A stretch of 14,867 bases of DNA from a virus (IMGVR_UViG_2617270955_000010); one strand, 5' to 3'. Positions 1,554-11,634 are shown, numbered from the stretch's first letter. The notes: generated from the sequence alone by a model not told the origin. Numbers and translations: made by a program.

Positions 1554-2303
1554 ATGATGAATCATCTTTACGAACAACTGACCGCACTTAAACTCACCGG
1601 CTTCCGTGATGCGCTTAAAAAGCAACTTGCTCAACCGGGCACATACCAGGAGCTGGGCTTCGAAGAACGCCTGTCATTACTGACAGCAGAAGAACTAACC
1701 TGCCGTGAAAACAGGAAGGCAGAGCGTCTGATCAAACATGCACGGTTCAGACTTAATGCTGAGTTATCAAAGCTGGATTATCGTAACAATAGAGGGCTGG
1801 ACAGGGCCCTCATCCGTTCACTCAGTCAGGGAAACTGGTTAACCCTGAAACAAAATATTTTACTGACCGGGGCCACCGGCAGCGGTAAAACGTTCCTGGC
1901 ATGTGCACTTGGTCATAATGCCTGCCGACAGGGATACAAGGTCTACTATTATCGCCTTAAAGCGCTGATGGAACAGTGCTATCAGGGGCATGCTGATGGA
2001 AGATACAGCAAACTTTTGACCAGGCTGAATAATAGCGATCTGCTGCTTCTGGATGACTGGGGGCTGGAACCTCTCTCATCAGAACAGCGTAGCGACCTGC
2101 TGGAAATAGTGGATCTGATGTACCAACGAGGCTCAATCATCGTAGTGAGCCAGTTGCCGGTGGAAAACTGGTACAAAATGATCGGAGACTCCACACATGC
2201 GGATGCCATCCTAGATCGACTGGTTCATGGCAGTATCAAGATCGAACTTAAAGGAGAATCAATGCGGAAAATACAATCTCCGTTGACCGAAGGAGATCAG
2301 TGA
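1554..2303 (+). CDS. istB: IS21-family helper ATPase IstB (AAA+/DnaC-like)
   Basis: 249 aa. Walker A motif GATGSGKTF and Walker B motif LLLLDDWG. Position immediately downstream of istA. Confidence 0.93.
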   Translation: MMNHLYEQLTALKLTGFRDALKKQLAQPGTYQELGFEERLSLLTAEELTCRENRKAERLIKHARFRLNAELSKLDYRNNRGLDRALIRSLSQGNWLTLKQNILLTGATGSGKTFLACALGHNACRQGYKVYYYRLKALMEQCYQGHADGRYSKLLTRLNNSDLLLLDDWGLEPLSSEQRSDLLEIVDLMYQRGSIIVVSQLPVENWYKMIGDSTHADAILDRLVHGSIKIELKGESMRKIQSPLTEGDQ

Positions 2304-2373
2304 AGGTAATTTAAAAACGGTTCTGTGAAAGTGACACGAACCGATCTCCATCGATGTTACTCACCGATCTCCT

Positions 2374-2463
2374 TCACGGTAATACGCAACCGGCGTCGAT
2401 GCCGTTCAGTTCGGCAACACGGGACAGGTAGGCATTAAATTTAAAGCGGGTTTCCTGGCGCAT
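2374..2463 (-). pseudogene. N: 5' fragment of the P2 major capsid gene N, cut by the IS21-family insertion
   Basis: The reverse strand from the ATG at 2461..2463 reads MRQETRFKFNAYLSRVAELNGIDAG, matching my recollection of the P2 gpN N-terminus. It then diverges (CVLP-stop) as it enters the IS end. It lies 58 bp downstream of the O stop, as in P2. Confidence 0.8.
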
Positions 2464-2521
2464 AGTTTTTCCTGAAATTAAGGGTTAATCGTGAAGGTTT
2501 TCCCGGACTGACTGACGCCGG

Positions 2522-3376
2522 TCAGCAGTTCGTCATCAGGGCGTCACCGCCACCACCGGTGGCCTTGCTGCGGCGCTGCTGGGTCAGACTTTCGGTGTGG
2601 TCGAGACTGTTTTTCAGGCGGGTGAATGCCTGGCTGGTTTCATCCGCCCTGTCAGTCACCTCCTGCTTAAGTGCGGAAAAGGCGGTTTCCATCTCAGAGA
2701 GGCGCTGCTCAGTGGCGCTCAGTTTTTCCTGCACATGTTCAGCAACAGCGGTCACCGCTTCATGCACGTCATTCAGACGGGCGTCATCGCTGGCCTGTTT
2801 GCGGCCAAAAATGGATTTCACCTTTTCGGTCAGGGCGGTGAACACGGTTTCAGGCAGGTCTTCAAATTCCAGCTCAACAGGCGTTGCCACTGAAATCAGG
2901 TTTTCAGGGCTTAATTTGAAGCGGTTCAGGGGGTTGTGTTTTGCCGTGCGGCAGAATTCCAGGTATTCCGTGCCGAGGCTTGCCGGGTCATCGGTGACGG
3001 CCAGACCCACCAGATAACATTTGCCGGTGTTGGCAAAGTTCGGCTGAATTTCCATTGAGGTGTAGACCTTCTGCGCGGCCTTGTTCATCGCGATAAGGTC
3101 ATCGGTCGGGGTGATTTTCGCAAACAGCGCCCATTTGCCTTTCAGCGCCGAATCATCGTCAATCTTTTCGGCCTTCAGTTCGGCCACATCGCCATAACGC
3201 TTAAAAATACCGTCAGGCAGGATGCCGCGCAGATGTTCCAGGTTAATGCGGCAACCATAGACTCGCGGGTCAAAGGTTTCGGCCATTTCCTGAATATCCT
3301 GCGCACTGATGACACGCCCGTCACAGGTGTCACCCTCAACGCCGATACGAAAGAATTTTGAGACTTTTTTTGCCAT
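2522..3376 (-). CDS. O: P2-type capsid scaffolding protein gpO
   Basis: 284 aa from the internal ATG at 3374..3376 (MAKKVSKFFRIGVEGDTCDGR...), giving the length I recall for P2 gpO. The longer ORF start at 3442 adds 22 residues not expected. Gene order matches P2 (O divergent from P). Confidence 0.93.
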   Translation of the reverse strand: MAKKVSKFFRIGVEGDTCDGRVISAQDIQEMAETFDPRVYGCRINLEHLRGILPDGIFKRYGDVAELKAEKIDDDSALKGKWALFAKITPTDDLIAMNKAAQKVYTSMEIQPNFANTGKCYLVGLAVTDDPASLGTEYLEFCRTAKHNPLNRFKLSPENLISVATPVELEFEDLPETVFTALTEKVKSIFGRKQASDDARLNDVHEAVTAVAEHVQEKLSATEQRLSEMETAFSALKQEVTDRADETSQAFTRLKNSLDHTESLTQQRRSKATGGGGDALMTNC

Positions 3377-3549
3377 TGTCAGGAGTCCTGAATAGTGATT
3401 AGAGGAGTCACATGTCGGCATCAGTTTCCCGACGATGCGCATCCTCCGCCATCAGTCCCGGATGGCTTATCACTGACACAACAGCACCTTAGCGAATCGC
3501 GGGGCGCGACTCAGTAGCCTTGCCGTGTATTCATCACGGCGAGGTATTC
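3377..3549. promoter_or_regulatory. Divergent late promoter region between O (leftward) and P (rightward); expected site of Ogr-type activator-dependent late promoters
   Basis: Position only: the intergenic region between the divergently transcribed morphogenesis operons of a P2-like phage. I could not confidently pick out the TGT-N12-ACA activator dyads by eye. Confidence 0.45.
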
Positions 3550-5322
3550 ATGACCATCACCACAGACACCACTCTTTTACACGACCCGCGTCGTCAGGCG
3601 GCGCTGCTGTACTGGCAGGGGTTTTCCGTGCCGCAGATTGCCGCCATGTTGCAGATGAAACGTCCGACGGTGCAGAGCTGGAAACAGCGCGACGGCTGGG
3701 ACAGCGTTGCCCCCATCAGCCGTGTCGAAATGAGTCTGGAAGCGCGACTGACCCAGCTCATCATCAAACCGCAGAAAACCGGCGGTGACTTCAAGGAAAT
3801 TGACCTGCTGGGACGCCAGATTGAACGACTGGCACGGGTAAACCGCTACAGTCAGACCGGCAACGAGGCAGACCTTAATCCGAACGTCGCTAACCGCAAC
3901 AAAGGCGGGCGTCGCAAACCGAAAAAGAATTTTTTCAGTGACGAGGCCATCGAAAAGCTGGAGCAGATTTTCTTTGAGCAGTCTTTCGACTATCAGTTGC
4001 ACTGGTATCGCGCCGGGCTTGAGCACCGCATCCGCGATATCCTGAAATCCCGCCAGATTGGCGCGACGTTTTATTTTTCCCGCGAGGCGCTGCTGCGCGC
4101 CCTGAAAACCGGTCATAACCAGATTTTTCTGTCGGCCAGTAAAACGCAGGCGTATGTGTTCCGCGAATACATCATCGCCTTTGCCCGGCTGGTTGACGTT
4201 GACCTGACCGGTGACCCGATTGTCCTGGGCAATAACGGCGCAAAACTGATTTTTCTCGGCACCAACTCCAACACCGCACAGAGCCATAACGGCGACCTGT
4301 ACGTCGACGAGATTTTCTGGATCCCGAATTTTCAGGTACTGCGTAAGGTGGCATCAGGTATGGCCTCACAGAGTCACCTGCGCTCGACCTATTTCTCCAC
4401 CCCGTCCACGCTGGCGCACGACGCCTACCCGTTCTGGTCGGGTGAACTGTTCAACCGGGGACGCGCCAGCGCCGCCGAACGCGTGGAAATCGACGTCAGT
4501 CATAACGCCCTTGCCGGAGGTCTTCTCTGTGCGGACGGCCAGTGGCGGCAGATTGTCACCATTGAGGACGCCCTGAAAGGCGGCTGCACGCTGTTCGACA
4601 TTGAGCAGCTCAAACGTGAAAACAGCGCCGACGATTTTAAAAACCTGTTCATGTGTGAATTTGTTGACGACAAGGCGTCGGTGTTCCCGTTCGAGGAGCT
4701 GCAACGCTGCATGGTCGACACGCTGGAAGAATGGGAAGACTATGCGCCGTTTGCCGCCAATCCGTTCGGCTCCCGCCCGGTATGGATTGGTTACGACCCG
4801 TCACACCGTGGCGACAGCGCCGGATGCGTGGTACTGGCACCGCCGGTGGTGGCCGGTGGCAAATTCAGAATACTTGAGCGTCACCAGTGGAAAGGCATGG
4901 ACTTTGCCACCCAGGCGGAATCCATCCGCAAACTCACCGAAAAATATAACGTCGAATACATCGGTATTGATGCCACCGGCCTCGGTGTCGGCGTGTTCCA
5001 GCTCGTGCGCTCGTTCTATCCCGCCGCGCGCGATATCCGCTACACACCGGAAATGAAAACCGCAATGGTGCTCAAGGCAAAAGACGTTATCCGTCGTGGC
5101 TGTCTGGAATATGACGTCAGCGCCACCGACATCACCAGCTCGTTTATGGCTATCCGCAAGACCATGACCAGCAGCGGACGCAGCGCCACCTATGAGGCCA
5201 GCCGCAGCGAGGAAGCCAGCCACGCCGACCTCGCCTGGGCGACCATGCACGCCCTGTTAAATGAGCCACTCACCGCCGGTATCAGCACCCCGCTGACATC
5301 CACCATTCTGGAGTTTTACTGA
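3550..5322 (+). CDS. P: P2-type terminase large (ATPase) subunit gpP
   Basis: 590 aa from the ATG at 3550 (MTITTDTTLLHDPRRQAALLYWQGFSVPQIAAM...), preceded by GAGG. The longer ORF from 3520 adds 10 residues. The stop overlaps the Q start (ATGA). Confidence 0.93.
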   Translation: MTITTDTTLLHDPRRQAALLYWQGFSVPQIAAMLQMKRPTVQSWKQRDGWDSVAPISRVEMSLEARLTQLIIKPQKTGGDFKEIDLLGRQIERLARVNRYSQTGNEADLNPNVANRNKGGRRKPKKNFFSDEAIEKLEQIFFEQSFDYQLHWYRAGLEHRIRDILKSRQIGATFYFSREALLRALKTGHNQIFLSASKTQAYVFREYIIAFARLVDVDLTGDPIVLGNNGAKLIFLGTNSNTAQSHNGDLYVDEIFWIPNFQVLRKVASGMASQSHLRSTYFSTPSTLAHDAYPFWSGELFNRGRASAAERVEIDVSHNALAGGLLCADGQWRQIVTIEDALKGGCTLFDIEQLKRENSADDFKNLFMCEFVDDKASVFPFEELQRCMVDTLEEWEDYAPFAANPFGSRPVWIGYDPSHRGDSAGCVVLAPPVVAGGKFRILERHQWKGMDFATQAESIRKLTEKYNVEYIGIDATGLGVGVFQLVRSFYPAARDIRYTPEMKTAMVLKAKDVIRRGCLEYDVSATDITSSFMAIRKTMTSSGRSATYEASRSEEASHADLAWATMHALLNEPLTAGISTPLTSTILEFY

Positions 5323-6356
5323 TGAGCAAGAAAAAAGGGAAAACACCGCAACCTGCGGCAAAAAAAATGACTGCCAGCGCCCCGAAAATGGAGGCATTCA
5401 CCTTTGGTGAGCCGGTGCCGGTGCTCGACCGCCGTGACATTCTGGATTACGTCGAATGCATCAGTAACGGCAGATGGTATGAGCCGCCGGTCAGCTTTAC
5501 CGGTCTGGCAAAAAGCCTGCGTGCTGCCGTGCATCACAGCTCACCGATTTACGTCAAACGTAATATTCTGGCTTCAACGTTTATCCCGCATCCATGGCTT
5601 TCCCAGCAGGATTTCAGCCGCTTTGTGCTGGATTTTCTGGTATTTGGTAATGCATTTCTGGAAAAGCGTTACAGCACCACCGGTAAGGTCATCAGACTGG
5701 AAACCTCACCGGCAAAATATACCCGCCGTGGTGTGGAAGAGGATATTTACTGGTGGGTGCCGTCCTTCAACGAGCCGACAGCCTTCGCGCCCGGCTCCGT
5801 GTTTCACCTGCTGGAGCCGGATATTAATCAGGAGCTGTACGGCCTGCCGGAATATCTCAGCGCCCTTAACTCTGCCTGGCTGAATGAGTCGGCCACGCTG
5901 TTCCGCCGCAAGTATTACGAAAATGGCGCCCATGCCGGATACATCATGTACGTCACCGATGCCGTGCAGGATCGCAACGATATCGAAATGCTTCGCGAAA
6001 ACATGGTTAAGTCGAAAGGCCGCAACAACTTTAAAAATCTGTTTCTCTATGCGCCACAGGGGAAAGCTGACGGCATTAAAATTATCCCCCTCAGTGAAGT
6101 AGCGACGAAGGACGATTTTTTTAATATCAAAAAAGCCAGCGCCACTGACCTGCTGGACGCGCACCGCATCCCCTTTCAGTTGATGGGGGGCAAGCCGGAG
6201 AACGTCGGGTCGCTGGGTGATATTGAGAAAGTGGCAAAGGTCTTTGTCCGCAATGAGCTTATCCCGTTACAGGACAGGATCCGCGAGATAAACGGCTGGC
6301 TCGGTCAGGAGGTCATCCGCTTTAAAAACTACTCACTGGACACCGACAACGGCTGA
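5322..6356 (+). CDS. Q: P2-type portal protein gpQ
   Basis: 344 aa, MSKKKGKTPQPAAKK...; translationally coupled to P; followed by an intrinsic terminator and the cos site, as in P2. Confidence 0.93.
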   Translation: MSKKKGKTPQPAAKKMTASAPKMEAFTFGEPVPVLDRRDILDYVECISNGRWYEPPVSFTGLAKSLRAAVHHSSPIYVKRNILASTFIPHPWLSQQDFSRFVLDFLVFGNAFLEKRYSTTGKVIRLETSPAKYTRRGVEEDIYWWVPSFNEPTAFAPGSVFHLLEPDINQELYGLPEYLSALNSAWLNESATLFRRKYYENGAHAGYIMYVTDAVQDRNDIEMLRENMVKSKGRNNFKNLFLYAPQGKADGIKIIPLSEVATKDDFFNIKKASATDLLDAHRIPFQLMGGKPENVGSLGDIEKVAKVFVRNELIPLQDRIREINGWLGQEVIRFKNYSLDTDNG

Positions 6357-6525: not shown

Positions 6526-6544
6526 GTGCTTTCCCCGCCTCGCC
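6526..6544. other. P2-type cos site (19-nt cohesive end)
   Basis: GTGCTTTCCCCGCCTCGCC is the reverse complement of the P2 cohesive end GGCGAGGCGGGGAAAGCAC as I recall it. It lies next to Q, where cos sits in P2. Confidence 0.7.
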
Positions 6545-6661
6545 CGCCCGCTTCGTGGGACGATTTTAATGCAGTTGCCCGCATTAGCTGAATCCGCGCC
6601 AGAACAGACATTATGGATATGTCAATACGAACTTATTGACGTGCAAAATCATGCAATCAAG

Positions 6662-6694
6662 CGCAAAAAAAAACCGCCTTCAAAGAGGCGGTTT
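6662..6694 (-). terminator. Rho-independent terminator of the cargo operon
   Basis: On the minus strand: a 9-bp stem AAACCGCCT / AGGCGGTTT (6671..6679 and 6686..6694) with a 6-nt loop, followed by a run of about 9 U. It lies 16 nt downstream of the kinase-HIRAN stop codon. Confidence 0.75.
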
Positions 6695-6709
6695 ATGTTA
6701 TCCCATTGA

Positions 6710-8353
6710 TTAAGATCTACATTCAACTAAAAGGTACACTAATGGACGTTCTGGCGTCCCATTCTTCTTTGCAACAAAAGCAGATATTTTGTGTTTTGCT
6801 ATTTTTTGCTTGAGTTTTTTACATAACACTTTGTTTATATAACCAAGTTTCCCGCTCTCATGAACAACAGCTATAGCATGTGGATCAACCGGGTTATCCT
6901 CTTCAGGAACAAGCTTGACCAAATCACCGACCATTACTTTCGACAAATCAAGCCCTTCCTGATAACGAGTTCCTGCCACTTCAAAAAGAAGCTCACCTTC
7001 ACTATTAAGAATTTCTGGATCTGGCACCAAACAAAAACCATCGCCAGGTGATTTTGCTCCTGTATATCCTAACAGCGCAAAATCAGAGCCTTCAAATGGA
7101 TGGGGGAGCAAATGTTGAGCCAGATACTCAGCAAAGTCTTTTCTTTTCCGTGGTGGTAAACGCCGAACAAACGGGTCAAGCACGTTGTTCGTATGTTCTT
7201 CACTTTTCAGACTAAATGCGGGATGTCCTGCAAACCCTTTCTCTTGGGCTTTAGCATAATCTTCTGACTGAAAATGGTATGTGAAGACGTAGTTATCCCC
7301 TTGCTGACGATCAATCTGACCAACAACATAACGAGTACCGCCTGTGGGTGGCTGCCATGTAAGAAGCAACCGAGTAGGCTCCATTATTCTGTTTATAGTA
7401 CGCATATTTAGAATCAGTGATAACCTTAGGTATCTACGCCTCAATAAACGAATCGTCCAATCCGCTCGTTCCCTAGTGAACGGCACATCGGAGCTAATTT
7501 CGCAAAGTGAATCTATCTTGTCGACCAGTTCCTGAAAATCAAATTCAAGTCTCCGGGCCAAGTACGCTTTTGACTGCTCATCAAGAGCCAAATCCTGTAT
7601 AGAAGAAATATGACCTAATCGTTCATGCGTGTCTGCCCGATTCTTCCGCAAATGATGACAACCACGCTGTATGTATTCATCTACATTTTGATGGTTCCAT
7701 CCTCTGATCCTCTCTACATACCTTTCATGCCCCAAACTAGTACCATTATCGAAATATGGTGCGAGATATCCCTTCACTTTAGGTGGCGTTATGCCTGGTG
7801 CAGATTCAGGTACAAAAACAAAACCCCAATTCTCTTGGTGTCTATCACTATTACCGATGAGCGCATCAAAAAGCAGCATATCGTAAAGCCATTGGATCCA
7901 GTCTGGAGAGATCAGGCCGCGGATACTAAAAGCCCTACAAATTAAGCGTAGATCAACAAGGTTATGGTGTCTTCCGGAAGAGTCATCAAAATCCGATATC
8001 AACACATGAAAAAAATCAGACGCATGAACAAATAACTGGCTACTTTGATCGTAAAACCACTCAAGCAAAGCTCCATATTCGTATTCACCGTTCTCCATCA
8101 TTCTTCGCGCTGGCAATGCTTTAGGAACAGGAACGCCCATAACATCTCCAACTATATAAGCAACGGTTTCCATCCAGTACTGATCGGGATAAGCATCTCT
8201 TGAGAGTTTAAAAAGATAAGGCCATTCCGGTTTTATCCCCTCAGGAGCATCATTCGGTGACCAAAGCATTTTTTTATCCCTCGCTCCTCGAGGAAAAATG
8301 CCATGCTCATCATCTTTACGCCAACTAGTTACATCTATTAAATTGATATCCAT
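6710..8353 (-). CDS. HipA-family (HipA_C-like) Ser/Thr kinase core fused to a C-terminal HIRAN domain; candidate defence effector/sensor
   Basis: 547 aa. Kinase motifs: P-loop-like GARDKK (aa 23-28), catalytic loop LIGNSDRHQENWGF (D170/H172/N175; HipA DxHxxN motif), and metal-binding APYFDNGTS (D202; compare HipA AP-YD--S). C-terminal ~93 aa (aa ~455-547), ...AGTRYQEGLDLSKVMVGDLVKLVPEEDNPVDPHAIAVVHESGKLGYINKVL..., fits the HIRAN pattern (G-x-x-Y, L-x-x-E-x-x-N-P-x-D-x-x-A-I, G-Y-I). The start is 9 nt after the exonuclease stop (operon). Domain calls are from motif recognition only. Confidence 0.8.
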   Translation of the reverse strand: MDINLIDVTSWRKDDEHGIFPRGARDKKMLWSPNDAPEGIKPEWPYLFKLSRDAYPDQYWMETVAYIVGDVMGVPVPKALPARRMMENGEYEYGALLEWFYDQSSQLFVHASDFFHVLISDFDDSSGRHHNLVDLRLICRAFSIRGLISPDWIQWLYDMLLFDALIGNSDRHQENWGFVFVPESAPGITPPKVKGYLAPYFDNGTSLGHERYVERIRGWNHQNVDEYIQRGCHHLRKNRADTHERLGHISSIQDLALDEQSKAYLARRLEFDFQELVDKIDSLCEISSDVPFTRERADWTIRLLRRRYLRLSLILNMRTINRIMEPTRLLLTWQPPTGGTRYVVGQIDRQQGDNYVFTYHFQSEDYAKAQEKGFAGHPAFSLKSEEHTNNVLDPFVRRLPPRKRKDFAEYLAQHLLPHPFEGSDFALLGYTGAKSPGDGFCLVPDPEILNSEGELLFEVAGTRYQEGLDLSKVMVGDLVKLVPEEDNPVDPHAIAVVHESGKLGYINKVLCKKLKQKIAKHKISAFVAKKNGTPERPLVYLLVECRS

Positions 8354-8362
8354 ATCTTACGG

Positions 8363-8914
8363 TTACCCAGCTAATGCACGGAAAGCAGCACTAACATAAG
8401 CTACCTGAAACTTTGCATCTCGAAGCGCATGATGCGCATCAGTAACATTAATGGAAAAATTTGCCCTTACATCAATATTCTTAAGGCTTTTAGCTAGTTC
8501 AACGATGGTACGCACGTCTCGATCATTTCGAAAACGCCATGGGATATTTTGCGCATGTTTACGGTAAACCGCTGCCAATATAGCGTTATCAAAGCTTGCC
8601 CCATTCCCCCAAACTTGTACGTCATCGTTACTACGACTTCGTACAAATAGAGAAAATTCTTGTAAGGCTTCATGTAAGTCAACAGCAGACGGGTCATTAA
8701 AAACCGCCCTTGCAGAATCGCTTTGTATCATCCACCACTGTAAAGTTTTTGGGTCTACAAAACTATTTTCCAATGCAGATGATAGGGTTATAACTCTATA
8801 AAACTCATCCCCACACTTGCCAGTCAGAGGCTCAAAGAACACAGCGCCGATTGAAATCAAAGGAGCATCCATTGACACACCTAATGTTTCTATATCGAGC
8901 ATTAAATTATTCAT
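8363..8914 (-). CDS. DexA-like DEDDh 3'-5' exonuclease (DnaQ-fold)
   Basis: 183 aa. Exo I motif LDIETLG (D7, E9); Exo II motif WGNGASFDNAIL (D109); Exo III motif DAHHALRDA (H161-x4-D166). The overall pattern resembles phage T4 DexA (IDFETMG, GMSFDFPIL, HDSIHD). Strong SD GGAGG 5 nt upstream of the ATG. Confidence 0.85.
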   Translation of the reverse strand: MNNLMLDIETLGVSMDAPLISIGAVFFEPLTGKCGDEFYRVITLSSALENSFVDPKTLQWWMIQSDSARAVFNDPSAVDLHEALQEFSLFVRSRSNDDVQVWGNGASFDNAILAAVYRKHAQNIPWRFRNDRDVRTIVELAKSLKNIDVRANFSINVTDAHHALRDAKFQVAYVSAAFRALAG

Positions 8915-9054
8915 TTAACCTCCACCCCAGACATAGCTCAGGGAAACGTAACCTATTGAAATAACGAATCAAGTATTTGTCACATTCTATACTAAAACAT
9001 TCGAATTCCAAAACTTCAGCTTTTGCAACCCCTTACAAGTCAATTGATCCATAA

Positions 9055-9074
9055 TACTGTATACATACACAGTA
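9055..9074. promoter_or_regulatory. Putative LexA (SOS) operator upstream of the cargo operon
   Basis: TACTGTATACATACACAGTA has the CTGT-N8-ACAG pattern with an AT-rich centre and matches the E. coli LexA consensus TACTGTATATATATACAGTA at 18 of 20 positions. It lies 18 bp downstream of the A stop and about 140 bp upstream of the exonuclease ATG on the same transcriptional side. Confidence 0.5.
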
Positions 9075-9092
9075 CTACATTTGAAAAACAAA

Positions 9093-11369
9093 TCAAGGGA
9101 AATCATTAAAACCCGGCCAATCACAACAAGGCGGATAAACAAATTTTTTCATGTCATAAATAACTTCTGCCCCACGAGCCAGCGCCTCAAGCTCCCATCT
9201 CTGAGGCCTGATACCGTTCTGAGCAAGGTCAACGCGGATACGGGTGATTTGCAATCGTTCAGACCGGGTCAGTCTGGCCGATGGTGCAATTTCATGCGGT
9301 TTTAACGGGCTTCCGTTTCTTTGCCGACGATTTGGCGTTCTCAGCCCGTGTTTTAATGCGCCCCTGAGCGCCTTCACGACCTCCGGGTCATTCCATTCGA
9401 TAACACCATCATCAACCAGATTAAGCACTGCTGCGGCGTGCTCAGAAGGTGTGGGAACCGGTAACGAAGTATCACCACCGGTGAGCTTTCCACAGTTATT
9501 GACAGGACTCCGAGGCGCGGCGATGCCGCTTTTTAAAGTCAAAGGCTCAACGACCGGAACTTTCGGCACAATGCGCCAGTCCGTCGTTCTGGTGATATGA
9601 ATATGACGCGCGCCGAGATGCGGCGCGTAAATGCCGACCACTCTCTCGACCTCTTCCTCGTACTCGTTAACGTCATCCGACGGGCTACGGGCGACCCTGA
9701 CAGTCTGACAATCGCGCGGGACATTTGCCCCACCCTGCGCGCTGATATACAGCGCAAAATCGCCACTGTCTGCGGCGGCGCGTGCAGCCTCCACGCGTTC
9801 GTCAAATTCATCAGCAATGCTGACGCCGCGAGGCAATTTACGTAGCTCACGGTAAGCTCCCATTGTCGGCAGGCCAACCGTTTTAAATTGCGGGATGCGC
9901 CACGTTGACGCCCATGCGGTAACAGCCGCGGCAGTATCTTTCAGCGGTCTGCCGGTATCGTTATCGAGCTGACCATCCAGTGCATAGCCGTCGATATTTT
10001 TTGAAATGTATTTCGCGATATATCCCGCAGCACCGCCCCGGTTAAGGTGTTTTGCCTGAAAACGGTTTCGCGCGGCTCCTCTTTCGTCGCCATCCTCTTT
10101 GAGCGCATAGCGACGCATGATTTCGATAATCTGGTTACGCTGGCGTGGATTACAAAAAAGCATCATATGCCAGTGCGGCGTTCCGTCGTGGTGTGGCTCG
10201 ACGACTCGCAAACCGTAGACCTGTAAATCATTATCCTTGAATGCCGTGCGCATCAGGCTCCAGATACGGCAGAGATAACGCTGCGCATCCTTTGGATTAA
10301 ATGCCTCATCATTCCAGCCGTGATTAAGCTGGACGGTTTTATTTTCGCCTTTTCCAACCTGACGTGTCGGGTGATACTTTGACGGCGCGGTAAGCGTGAT
10401 AAACATCCCCACATCACCCTCTGAGGCGGCGTAACGCTCAATACCGGCAATGGTGTTCATCAGCTCCATCCGGCGAATTTCAGGATTAGAAATACTGCCC
10501 ATCACCTTACTGATAAGGTCGATGCGCTCGCCGGTTTCCCTGTTTTCAAGGTCACACGATTTAAGAAATTCCAGATTTGCCTGGCGGCGCGCACGCACAT
10601 CACGAATGGCATGTTTACTGGCATAAGGTGAACGGTCTTTATTGACCTCCCCGACAGCAATCAGTAACGCCTCATGCCAGCGCATACGCTGGCCTTTAAG
10701 CTGACTAATCCACCACTCATCGTTAAACAGGCGGGCAATGGCAGAATATGCCTGCCTCGTGGTCATCTGCCCTTTACGGTATTTTCTCCAGTAAAGCGGG
10801 GAAATATTGAAAGCACGTGCAGCGCCAGCAACATGACCATACAGGTGAGCCTGCGCCTCATCCGTAAACAGCGATTCTTTTTCGCCATGCGCATCCACCC
10901 AGGCATCGCAGAGTTCCCCATACATCATGAAAAGCTGCGATGAGATTCGGGCGGCAAACTTTTTCAGCTCCTTGTCATTCATCCCCGGCAGGCGCGCATA
11001 CTGGTCGCGCTCTGCCAGAAACAGCAACGACGCGTCAGTGTTCATTTCATGGCGCTGATTCACACGCTCAATGCGCGGCCATAAACGACGCTGAAAAGTG
11101 GATGTGAGGAAATAAAACCCGTGCACCGGGCTTTTATTGCGCCGGATGTAGTCATAGCGTGAAGTAAACAGCGAGCGCAAAAAGTAAGGCAGGCGGTTAA
11201 TCATGGATAAAACACCTTGCACCTGACGCATCTCGTCACGTGTAAGGGGTCTTTCGCGCCCGACAGCCTCGCGTGGCGCGTTCCACGCATAAGCACCGGT
11301 AAACGTCTTACCGGTGCCTGCGGCAAATGCTGACGGAGGGACAAAACGCCCGGAGGCTTTAACGGCCAT
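9093..11369 (-). CDS. A: P2-type replication initiation protein gpA (rolling-circle endonuclease)
   Basis: 758 aa from MAVKASGRFVPPSAFAAGTGK..., the N-terminus I recall for P2 gpA. The ORF track extends 14 codons further to 11411, which is a possible alternative start. HUH-like motif TPHWHMMLF and paired catalytic tyrosines GYIAKYISK (Y-x3-Y). Confidence 0.93.
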   Translation of the reverse strand: MAVKASGRFVPPSAFAAGTGKTFTGAYAWNAPREAVGRERPLTRDEMRQVQGVLSMINRLPYFLRSLFTSRYDYIRRNKSPVHGFYFLTSTFQRRLWPRIERVNQRHEMNTDASLLFLAERDQYARLPGMNDKELKKFAARISSQLFMMYGELCDAWVDAHGEKESLFTDEAQAHLYGHVAGAARAFNISPLYWRKYRKGQMTTRQAYSAIARLFNDEWWISQLKGQRMRWHEALLIAVGEVNKDRSPYASKHAIRDVRARRQANLEFLKSCDLENRETGERIDLISKVMGSISNPEIRRMELMNTIAGIERYAASEGDVGMFITLTAPSKYHPTRQVGKGENKTVQLNHGWNDEAFNPKDAQRYLCRIWSLMRTAFKDNDLQVYGLRVVEPHHDGTPHWHMMLFCNPRQRNQIIEIMRRYALKEDGDERGAARNRFQAKHLNRGGAAGYIAKYISKNIDGYALDGQLDNDTGRPLKDTAAAVTAWASTWRIPQFKTVGLPTMGAYRELRKLPRGVSIADEFDERVEAARAAADSGDFALYISAQGGANVPRDCQTVRVARSPSDDVNEYEEEVERVVGIYAPHLGARHIHITRTTDWRIVPKVPVVEPLTLKSGIAAPRSPVNNCGKLTGGDTSLPVPTPSEHAAAVLNLVDDGVIEWNDPEVVKALRGALKHGLRTPNRRQRNGSPLKPHEIAPSARLTRSERLQITRIRVDLAQNGIRPQRWELEALARGAEVIYDMKKFVYPPCCDWPGFNDFP

Positions 11370-11634
11370 ATGAGCCAAAAGCCTCTGAACAACGCTTGCT
11401 GAGTTGCTCAACCTGCGCGTTTAAATCAGCAAAAGACTTTGCGCTTCCGGTCAGAATATCGTGATGCATCAGGCCGGAAACGAGCTGGCTTAATTTCGGG
11501 TAATAACCAACCACCGCCAGCCATTCCTGACCGGCGTTTTTACCGCTTTCAGCTCTCTTTTTCTCGTGGAGAATAAACTGAAAGCTGTCACTGGTAACGA
11601 CATAACGTTCGCCAATTTCAATACGAATACTCAT
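11359..11634 (-). CDS. P2 orf83-like small early protein
   Basis: 91 aa, the same size and position as P2 orf83 immediately upstream of A; overlaps the A start by 11 nt. Confidence 0.75.
   Translation of the reverse strand: MSIRIEIGERYVVTSDSFQFILHEKKRAESGKNAGQEWLAVVGYYPKLSQLVSGLMHHDILTGSAKSFADLNAQVEQLSKRCSEAFGSYGR

Follow-up and report, generated by a model that had tools for sequence, protein, structure and literature searches.

The window analysed here, i.e. the whole 14,867-nucleotide stretch of the viral sequence IMGVR_UViG_2617270955_000010, contains a two-gene cargo operon (hereafter the cassette) that was acquired horizontally and lies in the gpA-gpQ (tin/old) hotspot of a P2-like prophage. 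The first gene encodes a DEDDh 3'-5' exonuclease and the second a HipA-family kinase that ends in a HIRAN domain. The exonuclease was found to be a conserved, co-diverging operon partner in the subclade to which this kinase belongs. The cassette as a whole is not a new system; it is a known, unproven candidate that was already cloned and assayed in 2022, with no anti-phage effect detected.

Both genes are located on the minus strand. The open reading frame (ORF) of the exonuclease (8914..8363, 183 amino acids) is preceded by a GGAGG ribosome-binding site (8919..8923, minus strand), read from the sequence 4 nt before the ATG, and the kinase ORF (8353..6710, 547 amino acids) follows on the same strand after a spacer of 9 nt. 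One promoter-like site and one terminator are predicted to serve both genes. The promoter candidate is a sigma70-like site, TTGGAA-16-TAGAAT (8984..9011, minus strand), proposed from its match to the consensus, and its TTGGAA and TAGAAT hexamers were kept in the leader of the homologous locus L001, which is 88-89% identical. The terminator-like hairpin (6671..6694, minus strand) has a 9-bp stem and a T-run and begins 16 nt past the kinase stop. The GC content was 0.39-0.44 over positions 6600-9200 compared with 0.52-0.58 in both flanks. On one side the operon is bordered by P2 gpA (9093-11411; phrog_91, 'nicking at origin') and on the other by the portal gene Q (5322-6356) and the P2 cos cohesive-end sequence (6526..6544, minus strand), which forms the left boundary of the hotspot. 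The latter was found as an exact 19-nt match, with none expected by chance, to a pattern taken to be that of P2 cos. These observations agree with the initial annotation, which had described two tightly linked genes with a 9-nt spacer, their own Shine-Dalgarno sequence and terminator, a foreign composition and a position between gene A and cos.

Three domains were distinguished in the kinase protein. A HipA-family Ser/Thr kinase core (approximately residues 1-315 of 547; 7409..8353, minus strand) was identified by HipA_C, by the PADLOC profile PDC-M03A and by Foldseek. It is followed by a HipS-like Couple_hipA domain (approximately residues 326-437; 7043..7378, minus strand; PF13657, E 8e-6), for which the match at residues 343-437 was above the gathering score, and by a C-terminal HIRAN domain (residues 453-547; 6713..6997, minus strand; PF08797, E 1.4e-10), for which the match at residues 453-525 scored 41.2 bits against a gathering score of 24.7. 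An AlphaFold2 model built on 12 homologues (pLDDT 84, pTM 0.86) matched CtkA (1e-9, TM on target 0.73-0.75), HipA (4e-6) and HipT (5e-5) when searched with Foldseek, and also matched DNA-bound HLTF HIRAN structures with a root mean square deviation of 2.7-3.6 A. Profile searches gave CtkA (1e-8) for the kinase protein and lp_0118 together with the HLTF HIRAN for the HIRAN domain, and the NCBIfam search returned sub-threshold matches only (YjjJ, 13 bits). The fusion of a HipA kinase to HIRAN claimed in the initial annotation was thus confirmed by Pfam, AlphaFold2 and Foldseek, and a HipS-like domain is present as well.

In the 12 kinase homologues, which were 40-81% identical, residues G23, R25, K27 and K49 were invariant, and so were the catalytic motifs D170-R-H-Q-E-N175 and D202-N-G. 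The roles of these motifs (glycine-rich loop, catalytic D-x-H-x-x-N and Mg-binding Asp of DxG) are presumed from prior knowledge. In the HIRAN domain G461-T-R-Y464, N487, D490 and A493 were invariant among the 12 homologues, and R463, Y464, N487, D490 and A493 align with the HLTF motif that contacts the DNA 3' end (G-x-R-Y; N-P-x-D-x-N-A). The aromatic residue preceding the Asp of this motif was not conserved. The 3'-end contacts seen in HLTF are thus kept, and DNA binding is predicted. No helix-turn-helix (HTH; HipB) antitoxin gene was found in the operon, in which the exonuclease is the sole partner of the kinase. The domain order is that of HipL, described as a kinase core, a HipS-like domain and HIRAN at the C-terminal end (Gerdes et al. 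2021, PMC8262856), and the window kinase also shares with HipL the core kinase motifs and the absence of N-subdomain-1. The architecture, which had been considered unassignable, therefore has a published counterpart.

The exonuclease (8363..8914, minus strand; 183 amino acids) is of the Rv2179c / T4 DexA type. It is a full-length member of PF16473 (Rv2179c-like 3'-5' exoribonuclease; E 7e-57, 192 bits with the gathering score at 27), a family that we take to have been named DUF5051 earlier. The protein also matched phrog_255 'exonuclease' (1e-62), its closest solved relative by sequence was PDB 8kel 'Exodeoxyribonuclease' (227 amino acids, E 2e-5) and its identity to the dexA genes found in T4-like phages was approximately 26%. 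Given the PF16473 membership, the 8kel match and the identity to T4-like dexA, 'DexA-like' is a fair label. The five catalytic DEDDh residues (D7, E9, D109, H161 and D166) were invariant across 10 kinase-linked homologues, which together with the family match upholds the earlier assignment as a DexA-like DEDDh exonuclease. All sites that had been proposed for mutation, D7/E9 in the exonuclease and D170 in the kinase, were invariant in the homologue alignments. T4 DexA and M. tuberculosis Rv2179c have the same Pfam family and DEDDh residues, but they serve in housekeeping or in phage DNA/RNA turnover and have no kinase as partner. An assignment of the exonuclease as a deoxydinucleotidase (diDNase, NrnC branch) was considered and rejected, since its sole Pfam family is PF16473 and the diDNases are NrnC homologues.

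The two published versions of the kinase gene, GenBank phage 899 (a coding sequence of 1560 nt) and Table S2B of Rousset et al., both begin at M29 (ATG 8269). Residues 1-28, among them the invariant G23/R25/K27, were conserved even in homologues of only 40% identity. Given this conservation and the fact that the HipA_C match begins at residue 23, the sequence indicates that the true start is very probably ATG 8353, 9 nt past the exonuclease stop, and that a start at M29 probably removes the presumed glycine-rich ATP-binding loop. This probable misannotation of the start matters if the annotated kinase ORF is to be sub-cloned.

The association of the two genes was examined in a survey of 137 loci encoding kinase relatives. 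In the kinase subclade (41-100% identity) the exonuclease was located directly upstream of the kinase in 31/31 loci. The fused (HipL-type) homologues, of at least 57% identity (L001-L003, L081-L100), were nearly all from Enterobacterales P2-like prophages and had the exonuclease upstream in every case, and the remaining members were split kinase and HipS-HIRAN pairs with an exonuclease (L004, L102-L104, L106-L108, L116; 41-57% identity). In the 14 representatives that were measured, the gap between exonuclease and kinase was 3-19 nt and the genes were on the same strand. HipL has been described as monocistronic, whereas the window kinase has an exonuclease gene 9 nt upstream, and given that the exonuclease precedes every fused homologue this description is to be corrected for the present lineage.

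The pairwise identities of the exonucleases and those of the kinases were closely correlated (r = 0.95), and the backbone genes A and Q were decoupled from the cargo: at L001 the cargo was 88-89% identical and gpA 60%, and at L092 the cargo was 56-63% identical and Q 80%. In a neighbour-joining tree the kinase-linked exonucleases formed a group of their own, from which about 60 unlinked phage exonucleases with comparable identity were separate. P2-type A, Q or P homologues were present on one or both sides in 30/31 of the loci with exonuclease and kinase.

In Shewanella (L004:7432-9642) the exonuclease, the split kinase and the HipS-HIRAN gene were found beside an IS3-family transposase, groEL and MatE. 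No P2 genes were detected around the module in the available DNA, in which the contig ends soon after the module. The three genes at this locus apparently move as a unit.

A parallel arrangement has been reported for NrnC-type DEDD deoxydinucleotidases, which in one third of the Actinomycete/Clostridial loci are neighbours of HipA and HIRAN genes (PMC11706625). As in the cassette, a DEDD 3'-5' exonuclease is coupled there to a HipA kinase and a HIRAN protein on mobile elements, whereas the diDNases are NrnC homologues from Gram-positive hosts with separate kinase and HIRAN genes and the window has a PF16473 exonuclease and a fused kinase. The authors of that study left the functional link of the diDNases with HipA/HIRAN open. 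Taken together, the linkage in 31/31 loci, the co-divergence, the grouping in the tree, the Shewanella locus and the diDNase parallel favour a functional link over chance adjacency.

The exonuclease was absent from the more distant split relatives (L005-L080, L101, L105, L109-L137) and from the C. difficile phage phiCDKH02. Split relatives of the hipIN type, at 30-57% identity, occur commonly in Proteobacteria and often follow hsdS. Given that most hipI/hipN relatives are without the exonuclease, the latter appears dispensable for the core module; the core unit is the kinase with HipS-HIRAN, and the exonuclease is an accessory of a branch that is almost wholly confined to P2-like prophages. 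Beside the split pairs of the gut-phage loci (L118-L137) and of phiCDKH02 no DEDD exonuclease was found, and the neighbours were DUF6808, an amidase, unknown proteins or a lysogeny module. In eleven species the split pair was located directly after HsdS (L016, L017, L019, L021, L022, L023, L025, L035, L037, L040 and L043), with the L019 representative of the upstream ORF matching Methylase_S, which is an 'embedded' context as used for the PADLOC PDC candidates. Other neighbours of split pairs were a Type ISP enzyme (L027), an SNF2 helicase (L060), an S24 repressor (L111) and an integrase. The contexts of the distant split relatives are thus defence-like or mobile.

Two of these relatives deserve separate mention. 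In Rheinheimera the split kinase gene is overlapped by a gene immediately upstream (L007:7571-8005) whose product is a DUF3037 protein (E 1.6e-20). DUF3037 belongs to the partner domains of DS-6/HipAD, a validated HipA-family defence system, which hints at partner exchange among HipA-kinase modules. In the temperate phage phiCDKH02 (L219, 1415-3004) split genes for two proteins, one with a HipA domain and one with a HIRAN domain, lie between ImmA/repressor genes and the integrase, so that the kinase/HIRAN module is present in a second family of phages, at a typical position for accessory genes.

The gpA-gpQ interval of P2-like prophages has been described as a defence hotspot in which 'DUF5051 + HIRAN' is a recurrent arrangement, and an 'Exonuclease + HipA' cassette from E. 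coli TA255 was cloned with its native promoter as pFR108 (Rousset et al. 2022, PMC9122126). Protein 1 of pFR108 was identical to the window exonuclease and protein 2, in the part compared from M29 onwards, was identical to the window kinase, so that the likeness extends to the locus type, the exonuclease and this part of the kinase. The fragment that was cloned is laid out as in the window and extends from the 3' end of gene A to that of Q. Given that the 3' part of the forward primer maps inside the end of gene A (window 9199), pFR108 included the native upstream region. The differences, none of them substantial, are the source strain, the presence of an IS21 element elsewhere in the window prophage and the annotation of the pFR108 kinase from M29.

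The pFR108 assay was carried out with eight phages and native expression, and of the eight additional P2 systems those named as active were DUF4238, a three-gene system and DprA+PRTase only (PMC9122126). In the same study a PARIS homologue showed no activity under its own promoter but was active on induction, and the hotspot was found to hold non-defence cargo too (partition systems, cytolethal distending toxin). The initial annotation had stated that a lack of protection by the cloned operon would count against it; such a result has in part been obtained with pFR108, for eight phages and native expression only.

The kinase family itself has also been predicted as a defence component. Among the PADLOC profiles, the N-terminal half (4-308) matched PDC-M03A (3.8e-31) and the C-terminal half (325-525) matched PDC-M03B (1e-30), the two parts being fused in one ORF in the window. 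PDC-M03 consists of a kinase gene (A) and a HipS-HIRAN gene (B), and the rule for the system presumably calls for both as separate neighbours. The approach behind the PDC candidates was 'guilt by embedding', and PDC-M03 is itself a prediction. Compared with hipIN / PDC-M03, to which both halves of the protein match, the window kinase is fused and an exonuclease is added. No named validated system covering the pair was found in PADLOC 2.0, Pfam, NCBIfam or PHROGs. The comparison with defence profiles thus matched both halves to a known candidate and gave no named validated system. Literature searches on P2-hotspot HipA, HipA-exonuclease defence and DUF5051/Rv2179c returned nothing beyond the papers cited here. 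Since the cassette or its kinase has been described three times independently, as HipL, as PDC-M03 and as pFR108, the last with identical proteins, the claim of an undescribed system is refuted. New in the present analysis are the finding that this lineage's module includes the exonuclease as a conserved component, the doubt about the M29 start and a LexA-like box upstream of the operon.

This box is a LexA-box-like palindrome, TACTGTGTATGTATACAGTA (CTG-N10-CAG; 9055..9074), which is an exact match to TACTGTN8ACAGTA and lies 19 nt beyond the gene A stop and approximately 45 nt upstream of the predicted -35. The chance level of a LexA-type match was 0.23 expected per window at no more than 2 mismatches, with at least one match in 41/200 shuffles. 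Within 400 bp a LexA-like box was found in 4/9 lineages (the window, L001, L097 and L102), and in L001 it was retained with different internal bases. The box was rejected as a universal feature of the cassette, given that five of the nine lineages were without it. No promoter overlapping the box was over the scan threshold. From its sequence, SOS control of the operon is possible. In other P2-like phages this hotspot contains SOS-controlled cargo, such as 186 tum and dinI-like genes.

The reading that we prefer, to which we would give an even chance, is that the cassette is the P2-hotspot 'Exonuclease + HipA' and functions as a self-neutralised, toxin-antitoxin-like sensor that aborts infection. 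In the resting state the HipS-like domain would hold the kinase off in cis, by analogy with HipS and HipT. Free 3'-OH ends of single-stranded DNA or short oligodeoxynucleotides, produced by phage replication or DNA breakdown, might then be bound by HIRAN and the inhibition relieved. HipA phosphorylates GltX and HipT phosphorylates TrpS; the freed kinase would phosphorylate an essential translation factor (an aminoacyl-tRNA synthetase or similar), so that the cells cease to grow and the infection is aborted. The exonuclease would clear the 3'-ended ligands, set the threshold of activation and protect the lysogen from self-activation, and it could possibly also shield the rolling-circle replication of P2 in the same way. 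The theme of 3' ends that the exonuclease and HIRAN would share is plausible. A related proposal has been made for HipL, in which HIRAN recognises DNA ends of the invading phage or replication intermediates and the kinase is thereby switched on and the infection aborted (PMC8262856).

A defence-type role of the cassette is reasonable, and the validation of DS-6/HipAD, an unrelated two-gene HipA-family defence system for which kinase activity is required (PMC13092281), adds to the plausibility of an anti-phage role while lessening its novelty. With HipBST/HipBA and DS-6/HipAD the cassette shares a HipA-family kinase effector, and it may have a HipS-type neutraliser as in HipBST. Compared with HipBA and HipAD it lacks a HipB/HTH antitoxin and a DUF3037/DUF1829 partner; its neutraliser-like domain lies in cis, with HIRAN and the exonuclease in addition.

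Several points weigh against the sensor reading. The HipA_C match at residues 23-206 scored 25.8 bits, which is under the gathering score of 30.5, and the autophosphorylated Ser of the glycine-rich loop in HipA and HipT seems to be absent here, judging from the motifs. Most hipI/hipN relatives do without the exonuclease, and its threshold-setting role is speculation. In the study of Rousset et al. pFR108 appears in Table S2B, 'additional tested systems', and not among the 'validated' systems of Table S2A (PMC9122126). Literature searches returned no experimental work on HipL, HipI or HipN. Given the possible SOS control and the small phage panel, the negative result with pFR108 may be uninformative.

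A more specific proposal, which we regard as tentative and rather unlikely, is that the exonuclease, the HipS-like domain, HIRAN and the kinase form a three-function immune module in which HIRAN senses free 3'-OH single-stranded DNA or short oligodeoxynucleotides and the DEDDh exonuclease is a signal-clearing, antitoxin-like part that sets the threshold. The exonuclease would then be analogous to the ring nucleases of cyclic-oligoadenylate signalling, with the kinase arresting translation, and the two unrelated DEDD subfamilies, DexA-like and NrnC-like, would independently have come to serve this purpose. The negative result with pFR108 would be due to weak or SOS-repressed native expression or to an unsuitable phage panel. 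If functional, the cassette would represent the first bacterial immune sensor with HIRAN at its core to be characterised, and a role would be given to the DEDD exonucleases that recurrently accompany HipA/HIRAN genes. The present analysis keeps the cassette from being counted as a discovery, and the remaining interest lies in the exonuclease partnership and the HIRAN-sensor hypothesis.

Rather unlikely, in our view, is a toxin-antitoxin-like or stress module that is of use to the prophage or lysogen for reasons apart from phage exclusion, for instance through addiction (prophage stabilisation) or DNA-damage-coupled growth arrest or persistence, possibly under SOS control. HipA-family kinases are the classical persistence and toxin-antitoxin toxins, the LexA-like palindrome upstream recurs in three other lineages, the native-promoter clone pFR108 gave no validated defence and the hotspot has non-defence cargo (PMC9122126), all of which would fit such a role. 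Relatives of the kinase sit, however, in type I restriction-modification operons and other defence contexts, and a DNA-end sensor domain suits the detection of foreign DNA. In addition, the LexA box on which SOS control would depend is missing in 5/9 lineages and in the window lies approximately 45 nt upstream of the predicted -35.

It is improbable that the kinase alone is functional, as a monocistronic HipL, and that the exonuclease is an ordinary phage gene of nucleic-acid metabolism that travels along. The family of the exonuclease is indeed common in kinase-free phages (686 phage records, typically lambdoid or T4-like), 76 among the 80 viral exonuclease loci kept were unlinked, and the hipI/hipN loci mostly lack it. 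A mere passenger is, however, difficult to reconcile with the invariable linkage, at 3-19 nt where measured, the correlated divergence, the separate grouping of the linked exonucleases in the tree and the retention of the exonuclease at the Shewanella locus, and an unrelated DEDD subfamily has become linked to HipA/HIRAN independently in Gram-positives (PMC11706625).

A counter-defence or inter-phage competition module of P2, in which the exonuclease destroys signals or rival DNA and the kinase modifies host or rival proteins, is very improbable. The cassette is cargo carried by a phage, at a locus that serves competition between viruses, and DEDDh exonucleases of phages, DexA among them, act on the products of DNA breakdown; against this, no homology to known anti-defence proteins was found in the libraries searched (Pfam, PADLOC, PHROGs and NCBIfam), and the same kinase module occurs in chromosomal restriction-modification islands of non-phage origin. 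A truly new, undescribed anti-phage system can practically be discounted, since the absence of a named validated system for the pair from PADLOC 2.0, Pfam, NCBIfam and PHROGs is outweighed by the publication of identical proteins as a tested candidate (PMC9122126), of the kinase family with a mechanism hypothesis (PMC8262856) and of the split form as PDC-M03.

Outside the cassette, the operon is surrounded by the scaffold gene O, small early genes, Cox, the C repressor, the integrase and other P2-type genes. The claim in the initial annotation that the rest of the region is syntenic with P2 gene for gene held at the level of family assignment, which was the only level compared. No RNA families were found in the whole window (Rfam). 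An IS21-family element (1-2303) abuts the P2 late region beside the scaffold gene O and consists of an IstA-like transposase with rve and Mu-transposase C-terminal domains (1-1542) and IstB (1554-2303; PF01695, E 2e-67). If this element truncates the capsid gene N, the prophage copy is probably defective.

The cassette was found 99.9% identical in 61/5426 complete E. coli genomes, and at the same identity in the records of Escherichia phage 899 and Yersinia phage GMG73. In many E. coli RefSeq records of complete chromosomes (for example NZ_CP054214, NZ_CP053251 and NZ_CP091682) it is located at 2270-4770 on the minus strand, and these records therefore begin approximately at the start codon of P2 gene A in its annotated form of 2277 nt. 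The assemblies were apparently rotated to the prophage replication gene and not to dnaA, which looks like an artefact of assembly processing.

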